64,000 bases of DNA from Escherichia coli (GTDB lineage Bacteria > Pseudomonadota > Gammaproteobacteria > Enterobacterales > Enterobacteriaceae), in assembly GCF_048403405.1 (NCBI RefSeq), contig NZ_CP183129.1, one strand, 5' to 3'. Below are positions 2,649 through 33,445 of the stretch, one piece after another (the stretch's first letter is position 1; each line of letters opens with the position of its first letter). The notes beneath the pieces are model-generated. The model saw nothing but the letters and a program-made list of their open reading frames with translations, did no database searches and was not told the origin of the DNA. A program made the position numbers and the translations under genes.

Positions 2649-5550
<2,902 letters not shown>

Positions 5551-5642: not shown

Positions 5643-5762
5643 TGCCTGGCGGCCGTAGCGCGGTGGTCCCACCTGACCCCATGCCGAACTCAGAAGTGAA
5701 ACGCCGTAGCGCCGATGGTAGTGTGGGGTCTCCCCATGCGAGAGTAGGGAACTGCCAGGCAT
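5643..5762 (+). rRNA. rrfD: 5S ribosomal RNA (first copy)
   Basis: tgcctggcggccgtagcgcggtggtcccacctgaccccatgccgaactcag...gggaactgccaggcat; 120 nt. Confidence 0.96.
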
Positions 5763-5774
5763 CAAATTTAGCGT

Positions 5775-5850
5775 GCTGATATGGCTCAGTTGGTAGAGCG
5801 CACCCTTGGTAAGGGTGAGGTCCCCAGTTCGACTCTGGGTATCAGCACCA
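5775..5850 (+). tRNA. thrV: tRNA-Thr (anticodon GGT) between the two 5S genes
   Basis: gctgatatggctcagttggtagagcgcacccttggtaagggtgaggtccccagttcgactctgggtatcagcacca. Confidence 0.95.
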
Positions 5851-5887
5851 CTTTTTAGGTTAAAGTTCGGCAGATTAGAAAAGAATT

Positions 5888-6007
5888 TGTCTGGCGGCAG
5901 TAGCGCGGTGGTCCCACCTGACCCCATGCCGAACTCAGAAGTGAAACGCCGTAGCGCCGATGGTAGTGTGGGGTCTCCCCATGCGAGAGTAGGGAACTGC
6001 CAGACAT
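5888..6007 (+). rRNA. rrfF: 5S ribosomal RNA (second copy, distal)
   Basis: tgtctggcggcagtagcgcggtggtcccacctgacccc...gggaactgccagacat; 120 nt; the double 5S with intervening tRNA-Thr is the rrnD signature. Confidence 0.95.
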
Positions 6008-17800: not shown

Positions 17801-17880
17801 ATAAAAAAGGCGCTTCCCCATGCCGAGTAGCGCCTTTTTAATCAAGCATTTAGCTAACCTGAATTAGTTCATGCCGTATT
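17801..17880. repeat. attL: 80 bp direct repeat copy carrying a duplicate of the fis 3' end and terminator hairpin
   Basis: ataaaaaaggcgcttccccatgccgagtagcgcctttttaatcaagcatttagctaacctgaattagttcatgccgtatt, identical to 33086-33165. Confidence 0.9.
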
Positions 17881-18007
17881 ATCAAAACCTATGTTTCTTA
17901 CAGTTTGTCATGGTTCGTTAGTGTTTATATAACTTATTGAATAAAATGATTAATGTTGTTTCTTTAGTTTACCTTTGTTCATTTCTGTTCATAGGGTAAT
18001 ATTAAAG

Positions 18008-18029
18008 TGTGCAGTCAGTGGTGCAGTCA
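18008..18029 (+). repeat. Candidate integrase arm-type site (left copy); internal tandem GTGCAGTCAG x2
   Basis: tgtgcagtcagtggtgcagtca also present at 33059-33080; sits 27 bp upstream of the int start codon. Confidence 0.55.
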
Positions 18030-18055
18030 GTTTTCAATATGAATTAAGGTTTTCT

Positions 18056-19279
18056 ATGGCTGGAGGAACGAACAAATTAAGCGATACATCGTTGCGTAAG
18101 ATGCTGGGGAGGGAAATCGATAGAGATAGATTTTATGCTGACGGTGATGGATTGAGTATCAAGGTGTCAAAAATTGGCGTTCTTACTTGGTATTTCTCTT
18201 TCCGGATTGGTGGGCGTGAATCGTATTCACAGCGTGTTAAGCTTGGAAACTACCCGGATCTTTCTCTGAAAGCTGCGCGCGAGAAACGTGAACAGTGTCG
18301 AGCATGGCTTGCTGAAGGTAAAAATCCAAAGCATCGGTTAAATGTGGCAATACATGAAACACTCAAACCAGTGACGGTAAAAGAGGCTCTGGATTACTGG
18401 ATCAGAGAATACGCCGTTTACAAGCGCACGAATGTTGATAAACACATTGAGCAACTGAGGAAGCATATTTTCCCCTATATAGGTGATTATCCGTTATCAA
18501 TGTGCGAAACCCGGCATTGGCTGGAGTGTTTCGCTAGAGTAAGGAATGACGCTCCAGTGGCAGCTGGTTATTTGCTGCAGATGTGTAAGCAGGCTCTGAA
18601 GTTTTGCCGCGTACATCGTTATGCGGTTAGCAATGCTCTGGATGACCTGACTATCGATGATGTTGGTAGAAAACAGAATAAGCGCGATAGGGAACACAGC
18701 AGTCAAGAGTTAGCAGATATTTGGCAGGAATGTTCAGGTAAGAAATTTAAACCATACTATTCATCGTTGTTGCGTCTATTGGTGGTGTTTGGATGTCGAA
18801 CCCAGGAGCTTCGGTTGTCACGTATTACAGAGTGGGATTTAAAGGATTGGATCTGGACAGTGCCTAAAGAACACAGCAAAGGCGGAGAGAAGATATTGCG
18901 CCCTATTCCAGTGGTAATACGCCCATTCATCCAACAGCTTATAGAGCAACACAAAAACTCAGGTCTTTTGTTGGGTGAAATAAAGAAACCAGAAGCTGTC
19001 AGCCAATGGGGGAGGATGATATATAAGCGTCTGGGGCATATTGAATCGTGGACACTTCACGACCTGCGCAGGACGTTTGCTACCACACTAAATAACATGG
19101 GGGTTGCACCACATGTTGTTGAACAGCTTCTCGGTCACACATTAGGTGGTGTAATGGCCATATACAATCGTAGCCAGTACTTACCAGAAAAACTAGACGC
19201 TCTAAATAAATGGATGGAACGGCTTGAGGTTATTTCTGGTCAGTATTCAAATGTAAAAATATTGAAGGTAGCGAAATGA
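18056..19279 (+). CDS. int: Tyrosine integrase (P4-like, N-terminal arm-binding domain)
   Basis: 407 aa from MAGGTNKLSD with RBS aagg; C-terminal catalytic residues in HDLRRTFAT and GHTLGGVMAIYNRSQY. Confidence 0.9.
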   Translation: MAGGTNKLSDTSLRKMLGREIDRDRFYADGDGLSIKVSKIGVLTWYFSFRIGGRESYSQRVKLGNYPDLSLKAAREKREQCRAWLAEGKNPKHRLNVAIHETLKPVTVKEALDYWIREYAVYKRTNVDKHIEQLRKHIFPYIGDYPLSMCETRHWLECFARVRNDAPVAAGYLLQMCKQALKFCRVHRYAVSNALDDLTIDDVGRKQNKRDREHSSQELADIWQECSGKKFKPYYSSLLRLLVVFGCRTQELRLSRITEWDLKDWIWTVPKEHSKGGEKILRPIPVVIRPFIQQLIEQHKNSGLLLGEIKKPEAVSQWGRMIYKRLGHIESWTLHDLRRTFATTLNNMGVAPHVVEQLLGHTLGGVMAIYNRSQYLPEKLDALNKWMERLEVISGQYSNVKILKVAK

Positions 19280-20013
19280 AAAAGATAAGCATCCCTGAGC
19301 GTATATATTATCCATTGCCTGAAGCAGCAAAGAAGCTGGGATGTACGCTTAATGATATATATCATTTTGCTGCTATAGGTGCTTTGAATATTTCTGTTTA
19401 TTTTCCAAACTGTCATCCATGTAAATCGCTAGTTATACCAAAATCATTAGTTGAAAATATTGATGTTGATTCAGGTGGGATGTTGCAAGGGGATCGCTGG
19501 GTAATTACAGGGATGAAGCCTGTTGGTAGCGATTTTGAATGGGTAAATTATTTTGGTGTGGCTTCTTATCTTGCAAAGAATTTTTGCGGTTTCTTCTATC
19601 TAAATCGGGAAAGTTTTTCTGAACTTGAATTTATTGGCAATGATGCAAGGATAGTATCATCTTTTTTTTCAACTCGTCCTGAATCAGAAAACTGGGAATG
19701 TCAAATTATGAGTGATGGGGCTATTGAGATCGACAGAAGGTTTTTATGTGTAATGGCTAAGGATTTGGAGCATATCAAAGATGTTGGAACCATGCCTGGA
19801 AGAAAAATGGGAGAATCGCCAAAAACTCTTGCGAAGAAAGCTGAGTTGATCCCTGCATTAATCAAACTAATTCCAGAAATGGATGATATAGATATTGGAA
19901 CTGCTCCAGTTGCTAAAGTGATCGCTGTTTTAGAGGCTGCGGCAGCGATGAAAGGGGTGTTTCTTCCCGCAACAGATAAGAATACGTGGGCTAAATACTT
20001 AGGGCGAACGTGA
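19276..20013 (+). CDS. Hypothetical accessory protein, AT-rich, between int and alpA
   Basis: 245 aa ORF whose start overlaps the int stop (ATGA); no motif I recognise; Ala-rich C-terminus. Confidence 0.55.
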   Translation: MKKISIPERIYYPLPEAAKKLGCTLNDIYHFAAIGALNISVYFPNCHPCKSLVIPKSLVENIDVDSGGMLQGDRWVITGMKPVGSDFEWVNYFGVASYLAKNFCGFFYLNRESFSELEFIGNDARIVSSFFSTRPESENWECQIMSDGAIEIDRRFLCVMAKDLEHIKDVGTMPGRKMGESPKTLAKKAELIPALIKLIPEMDDIDIGTAPVAKVIAVLEAAAAMKGVFLPATDKNTWAKYLGRT

Positions 20014-20102
20014 TATCACATATAAAATATGTGATATCACCTAAATATTCTAAGCATATTATCAATATGCTCTCGAACGATAATAAACGAGGGCATATCC
20101 AT

Positions 20103-20324
20103 ATGAGCAAAGTTAAATCATCGCAAGACCAATTTGATCGCATCATTCGTGAGGAGGAATGCCGACGCCTTACCGGTATTTGCCGAACGACGCGTTATAT
20201 GATGGAAAGGAAAGGGGTGTTTCCAGCCCGTCGTCAGTTGGGGGCTCGTTCTGTCGGTTGGTTGCTGTCTGAGGTTAATGATTGGCTTGAACGTCAACCC
20301 AAAGCACAACTGAAATCGGCGTAA
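20103..20324 (+). CDS. alpA: AlpA-family transcriptional regulator (excisionase-like HTH)
   Basis: 73 aa from MSKVKSSQDQ with RBS gaggg; RLTGICRTTRYMMERKGVFPARRQLGARSVGWLLSEVNDWL matches the AlpA family pattern. Confidence 0.8.
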   Translation: MSKVKSSQDQFDRIIREEECRRLTGICRTTRYMMERKGVFPARRQLGARSVGWLLSEVNDWLERQPKAQLKSA

Positions 20325-20673
20325 GGTGAGTTATGGTATATAAAACAAAGGCGACCGGGGGCGGTCGCCAATGGATACACACTAAACTTGAACGCATCAC
20401 CAACAATGCCACATTTGCGGCTGGTGGGCAATGTGATCAGTCAGATTTGGTTCGTTCCAAGGTTTGCAACGAGAGCTTTTTCCTGTGCTCTTTAAGGAAT
20501 TTCTCAAGAGCAAACGAACAAGGTGCGAATCTTTCTGATTCATGTTCATGCGCTATATTTTTGCGTCGTCTCTTACGAGTTGGTGATGGTGTTTTGGTTG
20601 ATTCTGTGTCGCTCATGGTGCTGTCCTGTAAAGCAATGCGCCTGCGTTCCTCAAACTATGGCGCTGATAGTGG

Positions 20674-20979
20674 CTATTCCTGCCCTTTGACCTTGCGTCG
20701 CTGGAGTTCTTCACGCGCGACGGTGACGAGTTGCCCGATCTCCTCGGCGGCTTTGACTCCGATTTTTTCAACCTGCGCTAGGGCATCGAGCGAAGAAACC
20801 AGGAGGTTTTCTCCGCTTCCTTCTGCCTGGCGGCGGGCGATTTCACCGCGCATGGCGGTTACTATGAATCCGGCGTTGCTTTCACCGTCCAGTTTTACGG
20901 ATTCCATGCCTTCAATAACATCATGCGGGATCCGAGCTGTCAGTGATTGTGATTTTGCGTTTTTTGAACCTGTAGCCAT
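20674..20979 (-). CDS. Putative small DNA-binding regulator, possibly ribbon-helix-helix
   Basis: 101 aa from MATGSKNAKS with strong RBS gagga; LTARIPHDVIEGMESVKLD resembles an RHH strand-helix; divergent from the downstream module. Confidence 0.5.
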   Translation of the reverse strand: MATGSKNAKSQSLTARIPHDVIEGMESVKLDGESNAGFIVTAMRGEIARRQAEGSGENLLVSSLDALAQVEKIGVKAAEEIGQLVTVAREELQRRKVKGQE

Positions 20980-20994
20980 CTGTAATCCTCTCAA

Positions 20995-21175
20995 TGAAAG
21001 TGTAAGACAATATACACATAAAAAGTCTTACATAAAAGCATTGACATGTAAGCCACCTATAAATAAAGTTACTTACACCTTGTTAATGCAAGGTGCAGAA
21101 ACGACGAAACCCCGCACTGTAGGAGCAGTAACGGGGCTTCTAACCACCAACGATAGCAAGATTATCGAGGCAGCT
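20995..21175. promoter_or_regulatory. Divergent promoter region with an array of TGTAAG/CTTACA half-sites
   Basis: TGTAAG at 21001 and 21047, CTTACA at 21027 and 21072, forming two inverted-repeat pairs; TTGACA at 21041. Confidence 0.45.
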
Positions 21176-21379
21176 ATGAGAAATCATACCATACACCCGC
21201 AAGGGCGGGACTCGTACAACCTGAATAAATACATCTGGCGTTTTATCGCCCTGAGCACCGCACAACCGCGCGTGATTCACATCGTGGCCACCAGCGAACA
21301 GGAAGCACGCCAGCAATCCCCGGCTGGCTGCGTGATGGTATTCGCCGCCCGCATTCGTCAGGGGGGGTGCCATGCCTGA
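21176..21379 (+). CDS. Small hypothetical protein (67 aa)
   Basis: ATG at 21176 preceded by RBS gagg; retained portion of the 348-aa track ORF, which is otherwise antisense to the regulator gene. Confidence 0.4.
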   Translation: MRNHTIHPQGRDSYNLNKYIWRFIALSTAQPRVIHIVATSEQEARQQSPAGCVMVFAARIRQGGCHA

Positions 21380-21692
21380 TATGTCAAATTACCAGTACCT
21401 GATTAATCCGCATTTTAACTGTGAGCATGATATTGCTAAAAAGGTTTATTCCGCTGCGGATGGGGCTACTGACAATATATCAATGGCTGTTGCGTCAATT
21501 GGTAGCCTGATGTGGCATGCGTCAGAAAATGAGGAATATGACGCAAAGGCCATGCGCATTGATATGGGTAATATCGGTTTGTTACTGGCAATGCTTGGAC
21601 ATTTTGATATTTCGTTACGGTGCACCATTGAAAATGCCACAGATGCATTAAATGCCATAAAGAAAGCGAATACTGATTCAAATCGGGGATAA
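21372..21692 (+). CDS. Hypothetical protein (106 aa)
   Basis: ORF in the replication module, co-directional with primase; no recognisable motif. Confidence 0.5.
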   Translation: MPDMSNYQYLINPHFNCEHDIAKKVYSAADGATDNISMAVASIGSLMWHASENEEYDAKAMRIDMGNIGLLLAMLGHFDISLRCTIENATDALNAIKKANTDSNRG

Positions 21693-21698
21693 ATAATC

Positions 21699-21998
21699 AT
21701 GAGAACATATTTATCTGGCTTGACTGCCAGCGGTTATGCACACCCTAAAATTATCCCCGGCGCTATTTATCTGGATAAGAACGGTAACAGAGTAACGGTA
21801 AAAGAACTGATGTTTGACCGTGTTTATTTTATTCGTGATGGCTATTCATTTCATAGTTCGCTGAACGTGGAGATCTTTATTTGCAGATTCCGGCGGGAAA
21901 TCCCGCTTTCCAGAAATAACCATGTGTCATGTATGGATGTTGATAAAAAACTACAGGAACTGAAAAACATGATTGCCGCGTGGAGAGAGCAGAAATGA
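21699..21998 (+). CDS. Hypothetical protein (99 aa)
   Basis: ORF whose stop overlaps the primase start (ATGA coupling). Confidence 0.5.
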   Translation: MRTYLSGLTASGYAHPKIIPGAIYLDKNGNRVTVKELMFDRVYFIRDGYSFHSSLNVEIFICRFRREIPLSRNNHVSCMDVDKKLQELKNMIAAWREQK

Positions 21999-23812
21999 AA
22001 AAAGCGCCAAATTTAAAACACCAGCCGCGTGACAAAATGACGGAAGTCATCATTTTTGCGGGTAGTGATGCGTGGGCACATGCGAAGCAGTGGCAGGAAC
22101 AGGACGGGCGACTGGCAGGCGATAACGTGCCACCTGTCTGGCTTGGAGAGCAACAACTTGCCGAACTGGACAACCTGCAAATTGTACCGGACGGACGCTA
22201 TCGCGTGCGTCTCTATCAGGCGGGGTTATTGCGTCCGGGGCTTGTTAATACCATCGGGCAGAAACTGGCAGCGGCAGGTGTCAGGGATGCTGATTATTAC
22301 CCTGAAGGAATGCACAGCCAGAAACGGGAGAACTGGCGCGAATATCTGGAACGTGAGCGGGGAGAGCTGGCGGAAAAGAAAAAGGTAGTTGAACTGCCTG
22401 TAAAGAAAAAAGAGCGGGTAAAAGACGATAACGCTTCATCACTGGCGCTTAACCAGATGGGAGCAAGTCAACGCGGCGAAGTTCTCCTGGCACATTATGG
22501 CGGTGAACTGGCGATTCATGCCGACTCTGACACTGTTCACCATTACAACGGCGTTGTATGGGAGCCAGTACAGGATAAAGAATTACAGCGAGCTATGGCG
22601 CAGATTTTCATTGATGCGGAGATCAGCTATTCGCAGAACGCCATTAAATCGGCGGTCGATACCATGAAGTTAAGTTTGCCTGTAATGGGGAATACAGCCC
22701 GTAACCTGATTGGATTCAGTAACGGGGTATTTGATACCAGAACAGGTAATTTTCGGGAGCATAACAAAAACGACTGGTTGTTAATTGCCAGTGAATTACC
22801 TTTCAGCCCACCAGCAGAGGGGGAAACGCTGGCAACACATGCGCCGAATTTCTGGAAGTGGTTACGCCGTTCGGTGGCTGAGAATGACCGCAAGGCGGAT
22901 CGCGTACTGGCGGCATTATTCATGGTGCTGGCGAACCGGTACGACTGGCAGTTATTCATTGAGGTAACAGGTCCAGGGGGAAGTGGTAAAAGCGTGATGG
23001 CGGAGATTTGCACCATGCTGGCGGGTAAGGCTAATACAGTATCAGCAAGCATGAAGGCGCTGGAAGATGCAAGGGAACGTGCGTTAGTGGTTGGCTTTTC
23101 TCTGATTATCATGCCGGATATGACCCGCTACGCTGGTGATGGGGCAGGGATTAAGGCCATTACAGGCGGTGACAAGGTGGCAATTGACCCGAAACACAAA
23201 GCTCCCTACTCAACGCGTATTCCGGCAGTAGTGCTGGCGGTTAACAATAACGCCATGTCATTCAGTGACCGCAGCGGGGGGATCTCACGTCGTCGGGTGA
23301 TATTCAATTTTTCGGAAGTTGTACCGGAGAACGAACGTGATCCGATGCTGGCGGAAAAAATAGAAGGTGAGCTGGCGGTAGTGATTCGCCATCTGCTTAC
23401 ACGGTTTGCTAACCAGGACGAAGCCAGACGCCTGTTATATGAGCAGCAGAAATCTGAAGAAGCACTGGCGATAAAGCGAGAGGGGGATTCGCTGGTGGAC
23501 TTCTGCGGCTATCTCATGGCGTCGGTAATGTGTGATGGCCTGTTAGTGGGTAATGCTGAAATTGTGCCATTCAGCCCGCGCAGATATCTCTATCATGCCT
23601 ATCTGGCTTATATGAGGGCACATGGGTTTGGTAAACCTGTAACACTGACGCGCTTCGGTAAAGATATGCCGGGGGCAATGGCGGAATATGGCAGGGAGTA
23701 TATGAAACGGAAAACGAAGCACGGTTTGCGTTCAAACGTGACACTGACGGAGGAATCAGAAGACTGGATGCCATCATGTGTATCGGTCACTAATGACGAT
23801 AGCAAAAATTAA
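21995..23812 (+). CDS. Primase-helicase of the phage/plasmid P4-alpha type (PICI pri-rep)
   Basis: About 605 aa; Walker A GPGGSGKS in the C-terminal half; followed directly by the iteron array. Confidence 0.8.
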   Translation: MKKAPNLKHQPRDKMTEVIIFAGSDAWAHAKQWQEQDGRLAGDNVPPVWLGEQQLAELDNLQIVPDGRYRVRLYQAGLLRPGLVNTIGQKLAAAGVRDADYYPEGMHSQKRENWREYLERERGELAEKKKVVELPVKKKERVKDDNASSLALNQMGASQRGEVLLAHYGGELAIHADSDTVHHYNGVVWEPVQDKELQRAMAQIFIDAEISYSQNAIKSAVDTMKLSLPVMGNTARNLIGFSNGVFDTRTGNFREHNKNDWLLIASELPFSPPAEGETLATHAPNFWKWLRRSVAENDRKADRVLAALFMVLANRYDWQLFIEVTGPGGSGKSVMAEICTMLAGKANTVSASMKALEDARERALVVGFSLIIMPDMTRYAGDGAGIKAITGGDKVAIDPKHKAPYSTRIPAVVLAVNNNAMSFSDRSGGISRRRVIFNFSEVVPENERDPMLAEKIEGELAVVIRHLLTRFANQDEARRLLYEQQKSEEALAIKREGDSLVDFCGYLMASVMCDGLLVGNAEIVPFSPRRYLYHAYLAYMRAHGFGKPVTLTRFGKDMPGAMAEYGREYMKRKTKHGLRSNVTLTEESEDWMPSCVSVTNDDSKN

Positions 23813-23824
23813 ACTTATGGAATA

Positions 23825-24049
23825 ACTGTTCACCACTGTTCACCCTGTCATAAATATCTTTTATATCAGTATATTATAGGGTTAACAGTTATTTATGAAC
23901 TGTTCACCAAACTATTCACTGTTCACCTTTTTGATTGTTTATTGAGCTTCAAGGGTGAACAGTGGTGAACAGTTGGTGAATAGTTTTTGTGAAACTGTTC
24001 ACCCCTTAACCTTATGAATTAAAAGATAAAATATCAAAAGGTGAACAGG
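23825..24049. repeat. Candidate origin of replication: array of about 9 ACTGTTCACC / GGTGAACAGT iterons with AT-rich spacers
   Basis: Direct copies at 23825, 23835, 23899, 23918, 23994; inverted copies at 23954, 23964, 24040; degenerate copies at 23909 and 23975; immediately 3' of the primase gene. Confidence 0.75.
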
Positions 24050-24196
24050 TGAAGGGTTAAAACGCAAAAATTTTAATTTACTGCTGTGAGATAAAGACTA
24101 TGACAGTAAAGCACACAAAAACACGCGCTTGATTTGACCGAATACTGGTTAAAAATGACTACAAATTAGATAAATTAGATAAAATAGGAAGAAATA

Positions 24197-24457
24197 ATGC
24201 CGATTCTGACGCATGAAATAAACAATTATTTTGATCAATTCGGACTTCATGATATTGCTTCAATGCCTACCACTCAGTACCGTCAGGCCCTTGCAAATGG
24301 TGGTTTACTGTGGATTGATCATCATGATTTTATTCGTAGCACGCTATCAGATGAAATCCTTGCAACAAATCAAGAGCAGGTTAATGTTTTGATTGAGCAT
24401 TTGCAGGTTTTAAGGAAAAAAATGCCACTACCTCCTAATTGGATGAGTGAGAAATGA
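24197..24457 (+). CDS. Hypothetical protein (86 aa)
   Basis: ATG at 24197 with RBS aggaag; convergent with the two-gene operon. Confidence 0.55.
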   Translation: MPILTHEINNYFDQFGLHDIASMPTTQYRQALANGGLLWIDHHDFIRSTLSDEILATNQEQVNVLIEHLQVLRKKMPLPPNWMSEK

Positions 24458-24459
24458 AT

Positions 24460-24490
24460 TATATGGCCTGGCTCTTTGCCAGGCCATATA
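24460..24490. terminator. Bidirectional terminator: perfect 13 bp inverted repeat between convergent stop codons
   Basis: tatatggcctggc-tctttg-ccaggccatata located exactly between the stops at 24455-24457 (+) and 24492-24494 (-). Confidence 0.75.
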
Positions 24491-24491
24491 C

Positions 24492-25001
24492 TCAAAGCAT
24501 TGTTAACAAGGCGGACGCACCAGCACCAACGAGACTGGCTACCGTACTATTATTTAGTAAATCCTTAAGCAAATTTTTTGCCTGAGGATCTTGTGATTGA
24601 GAAACTTTTTCAACAAGTTCAGTTATGCTGAGATTTACAATAAGATTGTTATGCTCACCGAGTTGAACCTGTGTACCGGATATGTTACCAATGTTAAATG
24701 TATTTTGGCTAGATTGTTTTGGTTTATGTTCATTAGCAGTCAGATTCTCGACTTTTAATGTAAGCATGTGAGGGTGATTAGTACCAACATTGAGTGTACC
24801 TCCTGGTAAAAATGACATATCAATTACTTTTAATATTATTTCCCCCTTCCCTAGTTTTTGAGTGATTTCATCTCCAATATTAATATCTGGTTCTTCAGTA
24901 TAAGGGATTAGCACTTTTTTTTCAGCTGAGTTTCTTTTCCCCTTGTATTCAACTCCTGCGATTGTGAATTTTTCTGGATATGCCATGACGTTAAGATCCA
25001 T
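24492..25001 (-). CDS. Candidate system gene B: 169-aa protein with hydrophobic Gly/Ala-rich C-terminal tail
   Basis: ATG (rc of 24999-25001) with RBS gaggag 7 nt upstream; 27 bp after gene A; C-terminus STVASLVGAGASALLTML; shares a C-terminal module with gene A. Confidence 0.7.
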   Translation of the reverse strand: MDLNVMAYPEKFTIAGVEYKGKRNSAEKKVLIPYTEEPDINIGDEITQKLGKGEIILKVIDMSFLPGGTLNVGTNHPHMLTLKVENLTANEHKPKQSSQNTFNIGNISGTQVQLGEHNNLIVNLSITELVEKVSQSQDPQAKNLLKDLLNNSTVASLVGAGASALLTML

Positions 25002-25030
25002 TATGTTGCTCCTCGTGATCGCTTTTGCGT

Positions 25031-25807
25031 TTAACTAGTAGATTTGAAAGTGTATTTTGTCTGTGTGTTAAGGTTTGATATTAGAGCTTCATAGTTTTCT
25101 TTACTCAGTAAGTTTTTTGAGTAGGCCTTCTTAAGAAGGTTTTTTGAGAGAGTAATAATTTCTTTTTCACCAGTTGATGCAATTTTTGAGAAGAACTCAG
25201 AGAGCTCTTGTATATTAATATTGTTATTTGTACCAAGTTGTACGTATTGGCTATTTACAGTAGCTATGTTGAATATGTTTTGTTTTGGATGCGTTTTTTT
25301 TAGCTTTTCAATTTCAGCATGTTCTATGATTTTTTGAGAGATACTTTCAATATAACCACTAACGTCTTTTTTTTCTGGGAAGGAAAACCCATCACCTCTT
25401 AATATTTTATCTGTTTCGGCCATTTCATAGTAAAGCCTGCGAATCATCACAAGTAATAGTAATTTAGCCTCCTCGATTGACTCCTCTATTGAGAATTGAC
25501 ATTCAATTGCTAACGCGGAGGTCTGCTCTAAAACAATTTCTGAGTTATTTTCAATGTAAGGATTGATAAAACCATTCCAAAAAATTTGAACGGGAGTACC
25601 TTTAAATGCCAAACCTTGATAGCATATTTCTGTTCCATCATATGCAGTAACTTTCATGGGGGGGCCTGCATTGAAAAATCGCCATCTATGAATCAGTTTG
25701 GTTAATCTTTCGTCAATCTCCCGAACTAATTTATAAGTCCTTTTGAACAATGGGGATGGTCGCATCCCAGGAACAGCAAGAATTTCTTTTGTCACTTGAA
25801 TCTCCAT
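25031..25807 (-). CDS. Candidate system gene A: 258-aa protein, no recognisable motifs
   Basis: First gene of the two-gene minus-strand operon; Lys/Asn/Ile-rich, AT-rich coding sequence; segment KQNIFNIATVNSQYVQLGTNNNINIQELSEFF is paralogous to gene B. Confidence 0.7.
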   Translation of the reverse strand: MEIQVTKEILAVPGMRPSPLFKRTYKLVREIDERLTKLIHRWRFFNAGPPMKVTAYDGTEICYQGLAFKGTPVQIFWNGFINPYIENNSEIVLEQTSALAIECQFSIEESIEEAKLLLLVMIRRLYYEMAETDKILRGDGFSFPEKKDVSGYIESISQKIIEHAEIEKLKKTHPKQNIFNIATVNSQYVQLGTNNNINIQELSEFFSKIASTGEKEIITLSKNLLKKAYSKNLLSKENYEALISNLNTQTKYTFKSTS

Positions 25808-26054
25808 AGTTTATCAGCATTTTTGTAAATTATTTGTGTGTTAACATTCAAGACTGTTCGTAACAAAAATACCTTATTTACATCAATTTTTTGATCCATA
25901 TCTTAAATAGTGGCACTCAGACGTGAGCCGCCACTGTTGCCGTCCGATCCCCTGCGCGATGCCGGGTTGATCTGCGAGATGCCGAGAGTGTCGGGCGGCG
26001 CTCCCTCCGTGTTGGTTTCACGTCCTGAATCTTAACCAATACGAGAAAACCTTC

Positions 26055-27224
26055 ATGAAGAAATTAATCGAGCTCCGCCAGCAAAAAAACGCCCTGAAAA
26101 ACCAGATGCGATCCCTGCTGGAAAAAGCCGACAGTGAAAACCGCAGCCTGAACGATGACGAGGGCAAACAGTTTGATGAACTGCGTGCAAAAGCTGATTC
26201 CCTCGATACAGACATTTCCCGCCTCGAGTCTGTGGCTGATGAAGAACGCAGCAAGCCAGGAACGGGCATCCAGAAAGTATCATCTGATGAATTGCGTAAC
26301 TACATCGTAACCGGAGATGTGCGATCTCTGTCCACCAGCACTGACAGCGGCAGGGATGGCGGATATACCGTAATTCCTGAGCTTGATCGCGAAGTCATGC
26401 GCCAGCTACAGGATGACAGTGTTATGCGCGTGATCGCGACCGTGAAGACTGCAAAATCAAATGAGTTTCAGAAACTGGTTTCCACTGGCGGCGCAACTGT
26501 AGGACGAGGCACAGAAGGCAGCGCACGCAGTGAAACCAACACCCCGAAAATTGAACGCGTAACCATCAAGCTGAACCCGATCTACGCCTACCCGAAAACC
26601 ACGCAGGAAATCCTAGATTTTTCAGAGGTGGATATTCTGGGCTGGTTATCCTCCGAAATTGCCGACACGTTCGCCAGCACCGAAGAGGATGATTTTGTTA
26701 ATGGCAACGGTAACGGCAAGCCGAAAGGCTTCATGGCTTACACCCGTGCGGCGACCAGTGACAAAACCCGCGCTTTTGGCACCATTGAAAAAATGGTAGC
26801 GGCAAGTGGAACCGCCATTACAGCGGACGAACTGATCGACATTCTCTACAAGCTGAAAGCGAAATACCGCAAAAATGCCGTCTGGGTGATGAACTCGGGC
26901 ACGGCAGGGACACTACAGAAGCTGAAAAATGAGAACGGCGATTATATCTGGCGCGACAGCCTTAAAGAAGGTGCGCCGGATATGTTGCTTGGTCGTCCTG
27001 TTTACTGCCTGGAGTCCATGCCGGACATCGGCGCAGGAAAAGCACCGCTAGCGGTTGGCGATTTCAGTCGTGGTTATTTCATCGTTGATCATGTAACAGG
27101 GATTCGCACCCGACCGGACAACATTACTGAACCCGGATTCTACAAGGTCCACACGGATAAATATCTGGGCGGTGGTGTGGTGGATTCAAACGCCATCAAA
27201 ATTCTGGAAATGAAAGCTGGCTAG
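26055..27224 (+). CDS. Major capsid protein, HK97 fold, with N-terminal coiled-coil delta/scaffold domain
   Basis: 389 aa; coiled-coil N-terminus then conserved MCP blocks (LLGRPVYCLESMP, GDFSRGYFIVDHVTGIRTRPD, NAIKILEMKAG). Confidence 0.85.
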   Translation: MKKLIELRQQKNALKNQMRSLLEKADSENRSLNDDEGKQFDELRAKADSLDTDISRLESVADEERSKPGTGIQKVSSDELRNYIVTGDVRSLSTSTDSGRDGGYTVIPELDREVMRQLQDDSVMRVIATVKTAKSNEFQKLVSTGGATVGRGTEGSARSETNTPKIERVTIKLNPIYAYPKTTQEILDFSEVDILGWLSSEIADTFASTEEDDFVNGNGNGKPKGFMAYTRAATSDKTRAFGTIEKMVAASGTAITADELIDILYKLKAKYRKNAVWVMNSGTAGTLQKLKNENGDYIWRDSLKEGAPDMLLGRPVYCLESMPDIGAGKAPLAVGDFSRGYFIVDHVTGIRTRPDNITEPGFYKVHTDKYLGGGVVDSNAIKILEMKAG

Positions 27225-27278
27225 TCATGAGTAAGGAGGAGGCTGCGGCCTCCTTTTTCAGCTTTATGGAGTACACCG

Positions 27279-27839
27279 ATGAAAAACACCGATTTTGAAA
27301 TCCGCACATCTGAACTGACCGCCAGCAATAAAAAGCTGGTGGGGTATGCCGTTCGCTGGAACAGCCTTTCAGAAATTATCTGGGACGAATTCCGCGAACA
27401 GTTCACGCCGGGGGCTTTTGCTGACTATCTGGCGGCGGGTAATGATGTGCGCTGCCTGTATGAGCATGACTATACCCAACTGCTGGGGCGCACCAAATCC
27501 GGCACTCTGGTACTGACTGAGGATAACACCGGGTTACGTTTTGAACTGACACCGCCGGATACCCAGCTTGGAAAAGATGTGCTTACGCTGGTGGAGCGTG
27601 GCGACATTACAGGAATGAGCTTTGGTTTTCGCGCATTATGCGAGGAGTGGAGTATCGCGCAAAAACCGTATTTGCGTACCGTAACCGCCGCTGAACTCCG
27701 TGAAATCACAATAACGTCGATGCCTGCTTATCCAGAATCTGGCGTGGAGATTGCCCACCGTTCGTTGTTTGCACAGCACCCTGAATTATGCCCGACAGGA
27801 AATAATCGTCATCGCTGGTCTGAGCTGGCGGGGTTGTGA
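27279..27839 (+). CDS. Prohead maturation protease, HK97 family
   Basis: 186 aa; pattern FEIR...GYAVRWN...GAF...LYEHD...LGRT...GMSFGFR...MPAYPE typical of HK97 prohead protease. Confidence 0.8.
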   Translation: MKNTDFEIRTSELTASNKKLVGYAVRWNSLSEIIWDEFREQFTPGAFADYLAAGNDVRCLYEHDYTQLLGRTKSGTLVLTEDNTGLRFELTPPDTQLGKDVLTLVERGDITGMSFGFRALCEEWSIAQKPYLRTVTAAELREITITSMPAYPESGVEIAHRSLFAQHPELCPTGNNRHRWSELAGL

Positions 27840-27840
27840 T

Positions 27841-29055
27841 ATGTGGTGGCCTTTTAGTCGTAAAAAAAGCGAGCAGCGTAACCTGTCCATTGATGATTTT
27901 CTGGCGCTGTCCGGCGTACCGAATACCGGATCCGGAGAATATGTTTCTGCCGGGACGGCTGAATCATTGCCTGCAGTGATGAATGCGGTTTCTGTCATCG
28001 CTGAGGCGGTGGCCACGATGCCGTGTTATCTGTATCTGGTACGTAATGACAAGGGCAGGGAGGCGCGGGAATGGCTGGACAGTCACCCGGTAGATATTCT
28101 GCTGAATGAGCAGCCTAATTCGTGCCAGACACCTTACCAGTTTAAACGCACAATGATGCGTCACTGCCTGCTGAACGGTAACGCCTATGCGGTTATTGAG
28201 TGGGGGCAGGACGGGCAGCCAAAATCACTTCATCCTTATGCGCCGGGGTGTGTTGTACCGGAACGCACAGGCGCACACAAATACCGCTATACCATCACCG
28301 AACCCTATACAGGAACGGTGCGCACGTATTTACAGGAAGAAGTTCTGCATCTCCGCTATGCCTCGGATGATGGCTTTCTGGGGCGCTCCCCCGTCACGAT
28401 TTGCCGTGAGGCACTTGGGCTTGGCCTTGCTCAACAGCGCCACGGAGCCAGCATTATGAAAGATGGCATGATGGCGGCAGGGATTATCACGTCAGGCGAA
28501 TGGCTGGACGGCGTGAAAGGTAAACAGGCATTGGATGCTCTGGAACGCTACAAGGGGGCGAAAAATGCCGGAAAAACGCCAATCCTTGAAGGGGGCATGG
28601 ATTACAGGCAACTGGGAATGAGTAACCAGGATGCGGAATGGCTGGCCTCCCGTCGCTTCTCCATTGAAGACATCGCCCGCATGTTCAACGTATCGCCTAT
28701 TTTTCTGCAGGAATACAGCAACAGCACCTACAGCAATTTCAGCGAGGCAAGCCGCGCGTTTCTGACCATGACAATGCGCCCGTGGCTGGCGAACTTCGAA
28801 CAGCAAATCAAGGCCGCTTTGCTGGTGGCTTCTCCCGTACCTGGTACCCGTTATCTGGTTGAGTTTGATTCAGCCGATTTATTACGCGCCACACCCACCG
28901 AACGTTATGCCACGTATGAGAAAGGGATTAAGAACGGGATCATGAATCCGAACGAAGCCCGTGAGCGTGAGGGTATGCCGCCGCGTGAAGGTGGTGATGA
29001 GTTCAGCCAGGCATGGAAACAGACTGTGGAAATTAAAGGGAGAAAAGATGAGTGA
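27841..29055 (+). CDS. Portal protein, HK97 family
   Basis: 404 aa from MWWPFSRKK, starting 2 nt after the protease stop; the track ORF's upstream extension overlaps the protease. Confidence 0.8.
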   Translation: MWWPFSRKKSEQRNLSIDDFLALSGVPNTGSGEYVSAGTAESLPAVMNAVSVIAEAVATMPCYLYLVRNDKGREAREWLDSHPVDILLNEQPNSCQTPYQFKRTMMRHCLLNGNAYAVIEWGQDGQPKSLHPYAPGCVVPERTGAHKYRYTITEPYTGTVRTYLQEEVLHLRYASDDGFLGRSPVTICREALGLGLAQQRHGASIMKDGMMAAGIITSGEWLDGVKGKQALDALERYKGAKNAGKTPILEGGMDYRQLGMSNQDAEWLASRRFSIEDIARMFNVSPIFLQEYSNSTYSNFSEASRAFLTMTMRPWLANFEQQIKAALLVASPVPGTRYLVEFDSADLLRATPTERYATYEKGIKNGIMNPNEAREREGMPPREGGDEFSQAWKQTVEIKGRKDE

Positions 29056-29350
29056 AGCCAGAATTACACCTGATGAAGTCAGGGCACATCTTCGACTTGA
29101 TGATGATTTATCCGGTGAAGGCGAACTTCTGAAAATGTATACCGATGCGGCGCTGGAAGCCTGCCAGAAGCATATCGGGAAACGTTTTGAAGACGGGCTG
29201 GAATTTACCCCGGCAATGCGTGTTGGTTGCCTGATGTACATCGCTTTCCTGTACGAGAACCGGGAAGCGGTTTCACCAGTGGAGCACTCGGAACTGCCTA
29301 TGGCTATTTCTGCGCTCTGGTCAGTTTATCGTGACGTAGGGGTGTACTGA
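29048..29350 (+). CDS. Head-tail connector (gp6-like) protein
   Basis: 100 aa, MSEARITPDEVRAHLRLDDDLSGEGELLKMYTDAALEACQKHIGKRF; start overlaps the portal stop. Confidence 0.7.
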   Translation: MSEARITPDEVRAHLRLDDDLSGEGELLKMYTDAALEACQKHIGKRFEDGLEFTPAMRVGCLMYIAFLYENREAVSPVEHSELPMAISALWSVYRDVGVY

Positions 29351-29790
29351 TGCCGTGGCAACCATTAAGGCGATGCACTGAGCCTGGCTGTAATAAGCGC
29401 GTGAAGTCCGGCAAGTGTGAAGAGCACAGGCGGGCTGCATGGCGTGCAGAGGATGCCAGACGGGGACACCGCCGCGCGCGCGGGTATTCCCGACAGTGGG
29501 ACAAATACCGCGCCCTGTACCTGAGCAAAAACCCGTTATGCGTGCGTTGTCTGGCTAAGGGGATTTATACGCCAGCTCTTGTGGTGGATCACATCATTCC
29601 CATCAATGGCGGCGGTGATGTTCTCTTCTGGCCTGAGTGGAATCACCAGGCATTGTGCCAGACGTGCCACAACCGTAAGACGACACGGGAAGATCCAGCC
29701 ACGAAAGCAAACCGTAAAGCGGGCATGTATCACGAGCAGGAAGAACGGGCGGCACACCGTAACGACTGGATGTATGGCGATGATGACTGA
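29350..29790 (+). CDS. HNH endonuclease (cos-packaging accessory nuclease)
   Basis: 146 aa; Cys-rich HNH core CVRCLAKG...VVDHIIPINGGGD...NHQALCQTCHNRKT. Confidence 0.85.
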   Translation: MPWQPLRRCTEPGCNKRVKSGKCEEHRRAAWRAEDARRGHRRARGYSRQWDKYRALYLSKNPLCVRCLAKGIYTPALVVDHIIPINGGGDVLFWPEWNHQALCQTCHNRKTTREDPATKANRKAGMYHEQEERAAHRNDWMYGDDD

Positions 29791-29960
29791 ACAGGAGCAA
29801 ACCAGGCTGATACGTGGACTGATAAGGCAGCGTGACACATGGAAGACACAGGAGACAGAGCACAAAGCCAACAGGACAGGGCGCACAAAACTCACCACAG
29901 CGAAGCGATTAACCGACCGTGACCGCGAGGTCATGGAATGTTTTCGCAATCGCTGGTGAG

Positions 29961-30026
29961 GCCGTCAGAGGGGGTGGGGGTGGTTTTCAGGACGAAACCG
30001 TCCCTGCCGGACACCGACCGCCCCCT
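29961..30026. other. Candidate cos/packaging site between HNH and terS
   Basis: G-tract gagggggtgggggtgg and complementary C-tract ccgccccctc flanking palindrome ggacgaaaccgtcc, in the 290 bp gap upstream of terS. Confidence 0.35.
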
Positions 30027-30078
30027 CAAATTTTTGTGCACGGTAATTTTTTTGAAAATAATTGGGCGAAAAAAGAAC

Positions 30079-30435
30079 ATGGCAAGACCACCAAAAGCCC
30101 CCGCTTACCTGGATGAAATCGCGGTCAGGCAGTGGAAGGAAAAATCGCGCCAGCTTTCCGGGCGGGAAGACCTTACCCCCGCCGACTGGAGCAATCTGGA
30201 ACTGTATTGTGTTAACTACTCCATATACCGCAAAGCCGTCGAAGACCTTGCGACGCGCGGGTTCAGCATTGTTAACAGTCAGGGCAGCGAGAGCAGAAAC
30301 CCCGCACTGAGCGCAAAGGCTGACGCAGAAAGAATAATGATCAAAATGGCTTCTTTGCTGGGTTTTGACCCGGTAAGCCGTCGCAGAAATCCACCGGAAA
30401 CAGAGGAAGAGGACGAACTTGACCGCCTGGCATGA
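30079..30435 (+). CDS. Terminase small subunit (P27-family-like)
   Basis: 118 aa from MARPPKAPAYLDEIAVRQWKEK; directly upstream of and overlapping terL; acidic C-terminus. Confidence 0.75.
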   Translation: MARPPKAPAYLDEIAVRQWKEKSRQLSGREDLTPADWSNLELYCVNYSIYRKAVEDLATRGFSIVNSQGSESRNPALSAKADAERIMIKMASLLGFDPVSRRRNPPETEEEDELDRLA

Positions 30436-32080
30436 GTACGCAGAAGGCGTAAAAAACGGCAAAATTACGGCCTGTAAACGACTGAAACAGGCCGTTAAAC
30501 GGTATTTTTCTGACCTTGAAAACTCCCTTTACACGTTCGATCCGGAGGTCGTGGAGCGGTTTATTGCCTTTTCCCGGGTGTGTCCGCACGTAAAAGGCGC
30601 AATGCGCGGTAGTCCCATTGAACTGGAGCCGTGGCAGCAGTTCGCCTTTGCCTGCATCCTGGGCTTTAAGGTTAAGGCCACCGGACGGCGCAAATACACC
30701 AGCGCATTCATTGAAGTACCGCGAAAAAATGCCAAATCCACGGTCGCCGCTATCCTGGCTAACTGGTTTCTGGTTATGGAAAACGGGCAGCAGGATATTT
30801 ACACCGCCGCCGTGAGTCGTGATCAGGCGCGGATCGTGTTTGATGATGCGCGTCAGATGTGCCTTTTATCCCGACCGTTACGAAAGCGGGTAAATATTCA
30901 GGCACACAAGGTGATACACCCGAAAACTAACAGCCTGTTAAAGCCACTGGCAGCAAAAGCGGCAACCATTGAAGGTACAAATCCGAGTCTTGCCATTGTG
31001 GATGAATATCACCTGCACCCTGACAACGGGGTTTATTCCGCACTTGAGCTGGGGATGGGGGCGCGTCCGGAGGGGCTGTTATTTGCCATCACCACATCGG
31101 GGAGCAACGTTGTTTCAGCCTGTAAACAACACTATGACTATTGCTGTCAGATACTGGATGGTGAAGAGATGAACGAATCCATGTTCGTTCTGATTTACGA
31201 GCTGGATGATGAAAGCGAGGTTGACGATCCGGCCATGTGGATAAAGGCGAATCCAAATATCGATGTTTCCGTCGATCGTGAAAAACTGGCCTCAACCATC
31301 CAGAAAGCGCGGGGTATTCCGTCGCAGTGGGTGGAAATGCTCACCAAGCGATTCAATATCTGGTGTCAGGGGGCTACGCCGTGGATGGGTAACGGTGCAT
31401 GGGCGGAGTGCGCCGGAACGTTCGCGGAGGCGGATTTATACGGGCAGGAGTGCTACGCGGGACTGGACTTATCATCAACCAGCGATATTTCCAGCGTGTG
31501 CTATGCCTTTCCGGTCGGTAAAAAGATTATGCTGGTTTCCCGTCACTATCTGCCGGAATTTCAGCTACAGAACCCCGCCAATAAAAACCGCGCCATCTAT
31601 CGCCAGTGGGTAAAGGCGGGCTGGATACGCACAACACCGGGTGACTGCATTGATTATGACCGTATCCGTGATGACATCATGGCGGATGCAGAGAATTTCA
31701 ATATCAGGCTGGTGGGCTTCGATACATGGAACGCCACGCACCTGAGGACGCAGCTACAGGGGGCAGGATTTGAGGTGGAGCCGTTCCCGCAAACATACCT
31801 TCGTTTCAGTCCGGCGGCGAAATCGTTCGAAGTTTTTGTTAACCGGAAGGTGATTGTGCATCGTGGTGATCCGGTGCTGGCCTGGTCAATGAGTAATGTT
31901 GTGATGCAGAGTGACGCGAACGCCAATATCAAGCCGAACAAGAAAAAATCATCCAACAAGATAGACCCGAGCGTTGCGGCGCTGATGGCGTTTGGCACAT
32001 TCCAGGCAGAGCATGAGGAATTTGCATTTGATATGAGCGACAGCCACAAAGAGCGACTTGCGGCGTTTGATGGGGTATGA
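30419..32080 (+). CDS. Terminase large subunit
   Basis: 553 aa; ATPase N-terminal domain and nuclease C-terminal domain typical of TerL. Confidence 0.85.
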   Translation: MTAWHEYAEGVKNGKITACKRLKQAVKRYFSDLENSLYTFDPEVVERFIAFSRVCPHVKGAMRGSPIELEPWQQFAFACILGFKVKATGRRKYTSAFIEVPRKNAKSTVAAILANWFLVMENGQQDIYTAAVSRDQARIVFDDARQMCLLSRPLRKRVNIQAHKVIHPKTNSLLKPLAAKAATIEGTNPSLAIVDEYHLHPDNGVYSALELGMGARPEGLLFAITTSGSNVVSACKQHYDYCCQILDGEEMNESMFVLIYELDDESEVDDPAMWIKANPNIDVSVDREKLASTIQKARGIPSQWVEMLTKRFNIWCQGATPWMGNGAWAECAGTFAEADLYGQECYAGLDLSSTSDISSVCYAFPVGKKIMLVSRHYLPEFQLQNPANKNRAIYRQWVKAGWIRTTPGDCIDYDRIRDDIMADAENFNIRLVGFDTWNATHLRTQLQGAGFEVEPFPQTYLRFSPAAKSFEVFVNRKVIVHRGDPVLAWSMSNVVMQSDANANIKPNKKKSSNKIDPSVAALMAFGTFQAEHEEFAFDMSDSHKERLAAFDGV

Positions 32081-32367
32081 CGAGAATGACTGAAACTGAT
32101 CTACTAAAAATAATTCGCCGCATTACCGGAATCAGTCAGCAGCCTGACGAACAGGCTACACAGCCGGACAGCGTGATAGCCGAAAATTACGCGCGTGTGG
32201 TGGCTGAGGTGATGCGCCGTGACGGTATTGAGCTTAACGGCGTGGATATGCGCAACATACGAACCAGAGTCCTTGAGTTGCTGGCATACCGTCGCCGTTC
32301 TCAACAACGGAGGGAGAGCGCGAAAAATACTTACCAGTGGAAGAAGCCGGAACGACTGCGGCGGTAA
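32077..32367 (+). CDS. Hypothetical protein (96 aa), translationally coupled to terL
   Basis: ATGA overlap with the terL stop; basic C-terminus; possibly a head-completion protein. Confidence 0.5.
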   Translation: MTRMTETDLLKIIRRITGISQQPDEQATQPDSVIAENYARVVAEVMRRDGIELNGVDMRNIRTRVLELLAYRRRSQQRRESAKNTYQWKKPERLRR

Positions 32368-32408
32368 CTTGCTGATATTCCCGATAACGCAAAATTGCGT
32401 TGGCTGGC
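32366..32408 (+). repeat. Copy 1 of a 43 bp imperfect direct repeat in the right-end non-coding region, followed by palindrome TGCAAATTTGCA (32414-32425)
   Basis: taacttgctgatattcccgataacgcaaaattgcgttggctgg versus copy 2 at 32669-32711, about 35 of 43 identical by eye. Confidence 0.6.
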
Positions 32409-32668
32409 ATAGTGCAAATTTGCACGATGACCTAACCCATTGACTTTTCTTCAATCCTCAATTTTGAGGAGGCCGGAAGATAAAAAACTGTCAAAACTTG
32501 TCATGCAAAACGTTACCAGCACGGCTATTGATTTATTCGGCCCCTGCAACTGCTCCCAGAATGGTGGGGATCTGAAATCCGACCCTGAAAAAGTGCGCAA
32601 AAGTGGTACGCAAAAATTAGCGTCCAGCCACAGCCACCAGCTAGACAGAACGCCCAGAGCATTGTCAG

Positions 32669-32711
32669 TAACTGGTTGATATTCCCGACAGCCCCAAAAT
32701 GGGTTGGCTGG
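32669..32711 (+). repeat. Copy 2 of the 43 bp imperfect direct repeat, followed by palindrome TTGCAGATCTGCAA (32720-32733)
   Basis: taactggttgatattcccgacagccccaaaatgggttggctgg. Confidence 0.6.
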
Positions 32712-33058
32712 TGGGTGAGTTGCAGATCTGCAACTCGACCATGAAACTACGGAAACTACCCGTAGTTTGGGTAGTAAGAGTAACACCCAGATTCTGGGGC
32801 TTACTCGCGATACCCAAATAAAGGGTATCGGTGGACGAAATATTATTTCTCATATGTGAGCACCGAAGGCGGAATTCCGCCCTCGGTTATCTATCATGCA
32901 CAGGGAGAAGCAGGGCAAAACTCTTGCCATGGCGTCTTCCGGACCGCTCACCACACCGTTTTTATCCCCATTAAAAATGAAAAAACACATCACTGCGGAG
33001 ACATAACCACTGGCAGGTATCTATTCTATTTATTATTGTTCGGTTTCGTTCGTGCTTA

Positions 33059-33080
33059 TGTGCAGTCAGTGGTGCAGTCA
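33059..33080 (+). repeat. Candidate integrase arm-type site (right copy), 5 bp from attR
   Basis: tgtgcagtcagtggtgcagtca identical to 18008-18029. Confidence 0.55.
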
Positions 33081-33085
33081 TTTTA

Positions 33086-33165
33086 ATAAAAAAGGCGCTT
33101 CCCCATGCCGAGTAGCGCCTTTTTAATCAAGCATTTAGCTAACCTGAATTAGTTCATGCCGTATT
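33086..33165. repeat. attR: 80 bp direct repeat overlapping the last 17 nt of fis and its terminator
   Basis: Identical to 17801-17880; the fis stop codon (33149-33151) lies inside the repeat. Confidence 0.9.
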
Positions 33166-33445
33166 TTTTCAATTTTTTACGCAGCGTACCACGGTTGATG
33201 CCCATCATCAGCGCAGCACGGGTCTGGTTACCACGGGTGTATTGCATCACCATGTCCAACAGGGGCTGTTCTACTTCAGCCAGTACCAGCTCATAGAGGT
33301 CATTCACATCCTGACCGTTCAGTTGAGCAAAATAGTTCTTCAGTGCCTGTTTAACCGAGTCACGCAGGGGTTTTTGGGTTACCTGATCCTGAGAGTTAAC
33401 GGTAGAAACGGTCAGTACGTCAGAATTTACGCGTTGTTCGAACAT
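33149..33445 (-). CDS. fis: Nucleoid-associated protein / global regulator Fis
   Basis: 98 aa [39 protein letters not shown]...[17 protein letters not shown]. Confidence 0.97.

Follow-up and report, generated by a model that had tools for sequence, protein, structure and literature searches.

Matching 80-nucleotide blocks beside yhdJ and at the 3′ end of fis very probably mark the attachment sites of a capsid-forming fis PICI in Escherichia coli

Two copies of an 80-nt sequence, one beside yhdJ and one at the 3′ end of fis, were found in the 64,000-nt stretch of Escherichia coli DNA analysed here (contig NZ_CP183129.1; the whole stretch is called the window below). They are very probably the attL and attR sites of a capsid-forming 'fis PICI', with integrase crossover inside AGTTCATGCCGTA and with the element supplying the end of fis. 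The fis PICIs are a catalogued class of elements at fis (Barth et al. 2023, NAR Genom Bioinform, PMC10111431), and the repeat and the element are already known, down to the exact catalogued element. The supplementary table of that paper lists Eco10764.15.fis and Eco10847.15.fis, each of 15,285 bp and each with a block that is the exact reverse complement of our 80-mer, and the first 26 nt of the block occur at least 71 times in supplementary file 3. As far as the repeat is concerned, nothing sets the window apart from the published fis PICIs.

A repeat search and a direct string comparison showed that 17801–17880 and 33086–33165 form a perfect direct repeat, 80 nt long and 100% identical, with a start-to-start spacing of 15,285. 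Identity ends at the block edges, with no extra bases on either side, and the block is the lone long direct repeat in the 10–40 kb region of the window. In 64 kb of sequence an identity of 80 nt is effectively ruled out as a product of chance; even the 13-nt core AGTTCATGCCGTA occurs exactly twice in the window, against 0.11 expected. The preliminary description had placed the same 80 bp at the end of fis and beside yhdJ, and this is what we found, with 22 nt between the left copy and the start codon of yhdJ (17778). The right copy, read on the minus strand, contains the fis stop codon TAA (33149–33151), the codons for Asn98, Met97, Gly96 and Tyr95 (33152–33163) and two of the three bases of Lys94 (33164–33165). 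The 'last five codons and stop' attributed to it earlier are thus correct for the stop and need amendment for the codons, which are four complete ones plus two bases. Beyond the stop codon, 63 nt of 3′ UTR end in an A-run, a hairpin and a T-run. The two blocks and the cores within them are as follows.

17801–17880, no strand: attL identity block, the left 80-nt copy; native fis–yhdJ intergenic region including the terminator, through the hybrid fis 3′ end
17866–17878, no strand: minimal shared core AGTTCATGCCGTA in attL, the smallest attL/attR identity among 11 elements
33086–33165, no strand: attR identity block, the right 80-nt copy; fis 3′ UTR with its terminator, the stop codon and, from the functional fis, the final four and two-thirds codons
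33151–33163, no strand: minimal core AGTTCATGCCGTA in attR, comprising codons 98–95 of fis and the last base of its stop codon

The core was delimited on 11 complete elements at fis, eight from E. coli (that in the window included) and three from IMG/VR; the integrases on which the delimitation draws are only 53–86% identical to the Int of the window. The attL/attR identity blocks of the 11 elements ranged from 13 to 82 nt, and AGTTCATGCCGTA lay inside every one. This smallest shared identity must therefore contain the strand-exchange site. The published fis PICIs target the same fis 3′ end and have the consensus core TACGGCATGAACTAA; both copies in the window hold its reverse complement, TTAGTTCATGCCGTA.

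When the attP of the element was rebuilt, two co-oriented copies of a doubled motif, GTGCAGTCAgtgGTGCAGTCA, were found to flank the core.

33060–33080, plus strand: doubled motif of the P arm, GTGCAGTCAgtgGTGCAGTCA, separated from the terminator A-run by 5 nt and starting 92 nt left of GTTCATGCCGTA
18009–18029, plus strand: P′-arm doubled motif GTGCAGTCAgtgGTGCAGTCA, co-oriented with the P-arm copy, starting 142 nt to the right of base 1 of GTTCATGCCGTA and ending 26 nt before the int ATG

Chance would give 0.53 occurrences of the 9-mer GTGCAGTCA in the 64 kb; there are four, each of them in one of the two arm sites. For the P′ arm, 48 elements in which a fis core precedes int were surveyed (the window, L002–L008 and 40 IMG/VR loci). 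In 44 of these a doubled motif of 12-nt period started at +138, and in the other four at +139, +149, +150 and +151; its distance from the int ATG varied from 34 to 58 nt. On the P arm the motif started at −94 to −97 in 8 of the 11 complete elements. The P-arm doubling is degenerate in L005 and L007, and one unit is lost in strain N17; either perfect P-arm doubling is dispensable, or these three elements are impaired. The sequence of the motif differed with the integrase subtype, the forms being GTGCAGTCA, GTGTAGTCA, GTGTATCAC, TGTATAAACA, GTGTAACTA and GTTGTCA. Between subtypes the Int N-terminal domain was 37–49% identical and the rest of the protein 59–68% (reference, the Int of the window). 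In L046 the motif is of the GTGTAGTCA type, as in L003 and L026, and its N-terminus is 74–75% identical to theirs, against 66–67% for the rest.

These observations point to the doubled motifs as putative arm-type integrase sites, which the Int N-terminal domain would bind. With regard to att sites of the lambda-type (heterobivalent) kind, Int has an N-terminal arm-binding domain, and the doubled motifs on both arms, at fixed offsets and co-varying with the Int N-terminus, would be candidates for the arm-type sites. The motifs might alternatively be operators for AlpA or another regulator, or promoter elements of int, a reading that we consider rather unlikely. The P′ copy does end only 26 nt upstream of the int start codon, and for the analogous motif of HE-PICIs a role for AlpA or an unknown protein was left open (PMC10111431). 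Against this, it is the distance to the core that is fixed (+138 in 44 of 48) while that to the int ATG varies over 34–58 nt; the other attP arm, at the opposite end of the island, has a second copy in the same orientation and no promoter to be regulated; and the motif type tracks the Int N-terminal domain, as the 74–75% versus 66–67% identities of L046 with L003 and L026 illustrate.

The integrase clade of the HE-PICIs is related to this Int, and their attPs likewise have two co-oriented doubled motifs, one per arm, at fixed distances from the core. Their motif is tgTGTATTGCantgTGTATTGCa (TGTATTGC doubled), whereas that of the window is GTGCAGTCA with a 12-nt period, and the motifs of other fis PICIs (TGTATAAACA, GTGTATCAC, GTGTAACTA and GTTGTCA) are also unlike that of the HE-PICIs. 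The spacings are different as well: relative to the core the motifs start at about −96 and +138 here, and 81 and 132 are reported for HE-PICIs, figures whose reference points may differ. HE-PICIs target a prophage late gene, whereas the target here is a chromosomal gene. The HE-PICI doubled motif was stated not to be found in fis PICI attPs (PMC10111431); in contrast to that published absence, the fis PICIs examined here show a doubled motif of another sequence in a similar placement. The portions of the supplements of PMC10111431 that were consulted did not contain it, a slight indication that it is unreported. We think it somewhat probable that doubled motifs of 12-nt period at about −96 and +138, tracking the Int N-terminus, are a conserved and unreported att architecture of fis PICIs, and that they would, as arm sites, determine specificity throughout the fis/HE-PICI integrase clade. 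This architecture is a minor detail that is possibly unreported.

Two sets of related sequences bear on the arms. In E. coli N17 (L008, NZ_CM165900.1) one 12-nt unit, GTGCAGTCAGTG, is lost on the attR side at about 33036–33057 of L008, in an island otherwise 99% identical; N17 is thus a natural arm-site variant. The island matches in N64, MS20657, N24, N39 and N47 stop at the same query position, 15188, and these strains probably share the deletion. Related integrases (61% identity) were also found on two prophage-sized IMG/VR contigs of 38–45 kb, L054 and L056, with no fis core upstream. They have doubled motifs of their own, CTGGAACAACT and GTGGGGCACA respectively, just upstream of int in L054 and 233 nt upstream in L056, and may be helper-embedded PICIs or elements with other targets.

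Because the two copies of the 80-nt block are identical, the position of the crossover in it is unreadable from this window alone, and the relatives were used to locate it. In L004, L006 and L035 attL has TTA (a TAA stop codon), while attR, in the functional fis, has TCA (TGA); the attR stop codon therefore came from the element. In L026, L028 and L035, whose integrases are 82–83% identical to that of the window, scattered SNPs distinguish the attR-side copy of the terminator from the attL-side copy. These differences in the relatives therefore place strand exchange within the last four fis codons, the downstream part of attR being supplied by the element. We infer that the same crossover point holds for the element in the window, and that 33086–33150 in attR is element-borne. 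The terminator that now follows fis (33086–33148) would then be the element's copy, and the copy beside yhdJ the native one. The element's copy is here base-for-base identical to that of E. coli, and the block is for this reason 80 nt long, as against 13–17 nt in other elements.

Were the crossover instead elsewhere in the block, at the terminator or at its left edge, the terminator of fis would be native and the yhdJ-side copy element-borne. The identity of the two copies in this window accommodates such an exchange, which we nevertheless judge very improbable. Elements at fis share as little as the 13 nt of AGTTCATGCCGTA, with attL and attR arms that differ to the left of it, and from the TAA/TGA difference the strands must have been exchanged between the stop codon and the body of fis. 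An exchange in the fis codons also agrees with the published consensus core and with experimentally mapped excision, excision within the identity block having been shown experimentally for Kpn47.16.fis (PMC10111431). As a separate observation, the element-borne fis 3′ UTR and terminator of L026, L028 and L035 (IMG/VR; hosts with a TGA stop codon) are nearly, though not exactly, the same as the host version, which suggests that the attP arm may have been repeatedly homogenised with the host fis flank, or may co-diverge with it.

The terminator itself was examined by folding.

17803–17839, minus strand: native fis rho-independent terminator (A-run, GGCGCT...AGCGCC hairpin, T-run), from the sequence and the fold of the identical right copy; now between the island and yhdJ
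33088–33124, minus strand: element-borne terminator, 100% identical to the native one, from its fold; now terminates fis

The A-run, hairpin and T-run that had been noted in the preliminary description are indeed present at 33088–33124 and fold as fis-sense RNA with UUUUUU. The main hairpin has a 10-position stem with one mismatch, followed by UUUUUU. The fis-sense RNA of 33080–33150 (71 nt, containing the terminator) gave −24.2 kcal/mol with z = −4.3, an energy to which a small additional hairpin upstream contributes. A hairpin followed by a U-run forms on the opposite strand too (−16.8 kcal/mol, z = −3.1); on the plus strand it faces the late operon of the island. A simple terminator scanner run on both att regions made no call of the fis terminator, because its rules require a perfect stem and a 3–8 nt loop and so exclude the mismatch; since folding shows the hairpin, this negative scan was discounted. 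A hairpin and U-run just past the stop codon were present in all five attR arms that were folded (the window, L002, L004, L005 and L007), several of them unrelated in sequence. Rfam searches, with relaxed thresholds over 16–35 kb and gathering thresholds over the whole window, found nothing in or near the att sites, the only matches being to the rrn operon at 661–6005. This complete operon (16S, tRNA-Ile, tRNA-Ala, 23S, 5S, tRNA-Thr and a second 5S) lies upstream of yhdZYX–acrEF, a position that is ordinary E. coli synteny and unconnected to the repeat.

Between the two blocks lies the island, the main features of which are listed below.

17881–33085, plus strand: island-specific DNA of 15,205 bp, from the repeat bounds; with one repeat copy 15,285 bp, matching the length of Eco10764.15.fis
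18056–19279, plus strand: tyrosine integrase of 407 aa (Arm-DNA-bind_3, Phage_int_M and Phage_integrase), directed inward from attL; domain search and RefSeq annotation of the identical island
20103–20324, plus strand: AlpA-family regulator, putative excisionase (Phage_AlpA, 1.4e-14; phrog_2790)
21995–23812, plus strand: D5/P4-type primase-helicase, the replication module; domain search and RefSeq annotation of the identical island
26055–32080, plus strand: late operon with major capsid protein, S78 prohead protease, portal, gp6-like connector, HNH, TerS (Terminase_4) and TerL; domain searches and RefSeq annotation

The domains of the late operon occur in the order Phage_capsid, Peptidase_S78, Phage_portal, Phage_connect_1, HNH, Terminase_4, and TerL ATPase and nuclease. 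An Icd-like protein is also encoded by the island. Neither the RefSeq annotation of the identical island nor Pfam and PHROG searches of the remaining ORFs, which covered part of the small ones, showed tail or lysis genes. The island therefore has the gene content of a cf-PICI: 15.2 kb with int, alpA and primase, its own capsid module followed by HNH-TerS-TerL, and neither tail nor lysis genes. The features of a fis PICI were found as well, that is, an inward tyrosine integrase at the edge, then Phage_AlpA, with fis at attR and yhdJ across the island; the published fis PICIs have the same AlpA and inward tyrosine integrase, the same lack of tail genes and the same position of yhdJ opposite fis. 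The cf-PICI prototype EcCIEDL933 (Alqurainy et al., bioRxiv 10.1101/2022.09.08.507074) is, like the island, about 15 kb long with int, alpA and primase/rep, and the two are alike in gene content, with a capsid-protease-portal-connector module followed by HNH-TerS-TerL and no tail genes. We accordingly assign the island, on gene content, to the capsid-forming PICIs within the fis PICI class already published.

Since it encodes a capsid of HK97 type together with a protease, a portal and a terminase, the island might be taken for a decayed prophage remnant, with the repeat as a plain prophage att site. This is very improbable. The island is only 15.2 kb long, without tail, lysis or phage-type early genes, and its layout (int inward, AlpA, P4-type primase, capsid-protease-portal-connector-HNH-TerS-TerL) is that given for proteobacterial cf-PICIs. 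The compact organisation recurs at six of eight inspected occupied E. coli sites, and among 3565 islands there were zero prophages at fis (PMC10111431); the same paper describes yhdJ as lying across the island from fis in fis PICIs.

Several parts of the island and its relatives deserve separate mention. Two adjacent accessory genes, 24492–25001 and 25031–25795, lie on the minus strand between the replication and capsid modules, against the direction of the rest of the island, and match only PHROG families of unknown function. PADLOC gave no defence-system match for the unknown accessory genes of the island; a BrxA match of one accessory gene (E = 0.009) was dismissed as noise. The locus could, from its position and orientation, be a cargo or defence locus. 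At the right end, about 690 bp (32368–33059) have no annotated gene, the lone ORF of more than 70 aa wholly inside being a 76-aa GTG ORF at 32856–33086. Rfam had no match in 32368–33059, which could hold a cos/packaging site or a regulatory RNA. About 70% of the segment 20319–32984, from AlpA to just past the last late gene, is present in many E. coli (for example SMS-3-5, ST648) at 96–98% identity over the aligned pieces, at other chromosomal positions and with a different integrase module, which shows about 65% nucleotide identity to the int region here over only a third of it. This looks like modular exchange of integration modules.

The distribution of the island was examined with a query made of the left flank, one repeat copy and the right flank, searched against complete E. 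coli genomes. The rebuilt island-free junction was contiguous in 5306 of 5426 genomes, and in NZ_CP007394.1 it was matched at 100% over 1080 nt. In an alignment, a K-12-type locus had yhdJ and fis 85 nt apart and contained the 80 bp base for base; the attL block is identical to this empty-site sequence. A comparison with an island-free junction had been proposed as a check, and it comes out in favour of the preliminary reading, as the 80 bp are present in references that lack the island. The preliminary description had, in the same context, opposed a target duplication to an element-internal repeat. That choice is a false one: the sequence is in the empty site (attB), as was supposed, and it is also carried by the element (attP). 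On these comparisons the repeat is best described as a site-specific attP/attB identity block and not as a duplication made by insertion. A transposase-made target-site duplication, a segmental duplication or an assembly artefact, for which the existence of a direct repeat is the sole argument, can be dismissed, since target-site duplications are known only at lengths far below 80 nt, neither the searches nor the annotation of the island show a transposase, a tyrosine integrase and AlpA adjoining instead, and the same structure occurs in 19 independent complete genomes and in the published catalogue. The duplication by a transposon was in addition rejected on the ground that the block pre-exists singly in empty sites and in the element attP.

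The junction was split in about 119 complete E. coli genomes. Eight were inspected, including the genome of the window, and all eight had an island between yhdJ and fis, of 9.5–16.4 kb and in no case a full prophage. Coverage of the island of the window reached at least 80% in 19 complete E. coli genomes, and TUM1226 and strain 4621 have it at 100.0% identity. The fis site was empty in both O157:H7 genomes sampled. The compact cf-PICI layout was seen at six of the eight occupied sites; one of the six lacks part of the module. L005 (E. coli 126096) and L007 (WCHEC035148), the remaining two, contained a different island type of about 9.5 kb, with a VapE-type primase, a gene annotated as tail tape-measure protein, its own terminator, a 17-nt identity block and no capsid genes; L005 also has a small terminase. 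As they carry a tape-measure gene, these islands are not cf-PICIs, and the fis site appears from these gene complements to be common to at least two satellite architectures. In E. coli MS 69-1 (L090, NZ_CP146675.1, 3061–4247) the same island is present at 100% identity, with a deletion that fuses a truncated acrE to the AlpA region and removes acrS, yhdU, yhdJ, attL, int and a 245-aa ORF. To judge from these losses, it is an immobilised, int-less remnant.

The genes on either side of the island are the following.

33149–33445, minus strand: fis, intact, its protein identical to K-12-type Fis by sequence comparison; dusB behind it
16894–17778, minus strand: yhdJ (M.EcoKII adenine methyltransferase), from a gene search; split from fis by the island

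The earlier proposals that integration targeted the fis 3′ end and rebuilt an intact fis, and that yhdJ was moved away from it, both hold: Fis is 98 aa long and identical to the K-12-type protein, and the distance between the genes has grown from 85 nt to about 15.4 kb. A copy of the terminator is still upstream of yhdJ, 22 nt away, and a promoter scan of both att regions found no promoter-like site aimed at yhdJ. In K-12, according to a published report, the gene is silent where it natively lies (PMC4444293). Deletion of dusB-fis left yhdJ expression unchanged in a strain marked between fis and yhdJ (PMC4751926), although this bears weakly on read-through, as the control strain already has a cat cassette between the two genes. 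An effect of the island on yhdJ expression is speculation and unlikely to matter.

The following course of integration is proposed. The circular element would have an attP consisting of a doubled arm motif, 5 nt, a copy of the 63-nt fis 3′ UTR and terminator, and then the fis stop and last four codons, continuing past these codons with an AT-rich spacer of about 130 nt, the second doubled arm motif and the int gene. The tyrosine integrase would recombine attP with the chromosomal attB within AGTTCATGCCGTA, in the terminal fis codons. The integrated state would combine a chromosomal fis body with a stop codon, 3′ UTR and terminator that derive from the element, and the native terminator would be left with a dead fis tail beside yhdJ. 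The element-borne bidirectional terminator would keep the 3′ end of fis normal and shield fis from late transcription of the island, and Int together with AlpA would presumably excise the element upon induction of a helper phage. For this element, excision, the position of the crossover and helper dependence are based on relatives. Where integrases target the 3′ ends of genes, attP usually carries a replacement end. P4-type elements at tRNA genes and e14 at icd keep their target functional through such a surrogate 3′ end in attP, as here. The block in the window differs from theirs in lying mostly downstream of the gene, in the 3′ UTR and terminator, with only four codons replaced. In 3′-end-targeting elements the identity block extends past the exchange region of roughly 7 bp (PMC10111431).

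The repeat provides a clean, precisely bounded annotation of a mobile satellite, 17881–33085 plus one 80-nt att copy. To what was known of these elements the analysis adds the natural TAA/TGA and SNP differences, which give direct evidence for which half of each att site is element-borne. The doubled arm motif could guide experiments on arm recognition by the integrase or help software for att-site prediction, and the one-unit deletion of N17 and the int-less remnant of MS 69-1 could serve as ready-made mutants. fis is a catalogued PICI hotspot across Enterobacterales (PMC10111431), and this gene for a global regulator survives as an integration target because a stop codon, a 3′ UTR and a terminator arrive with the element.
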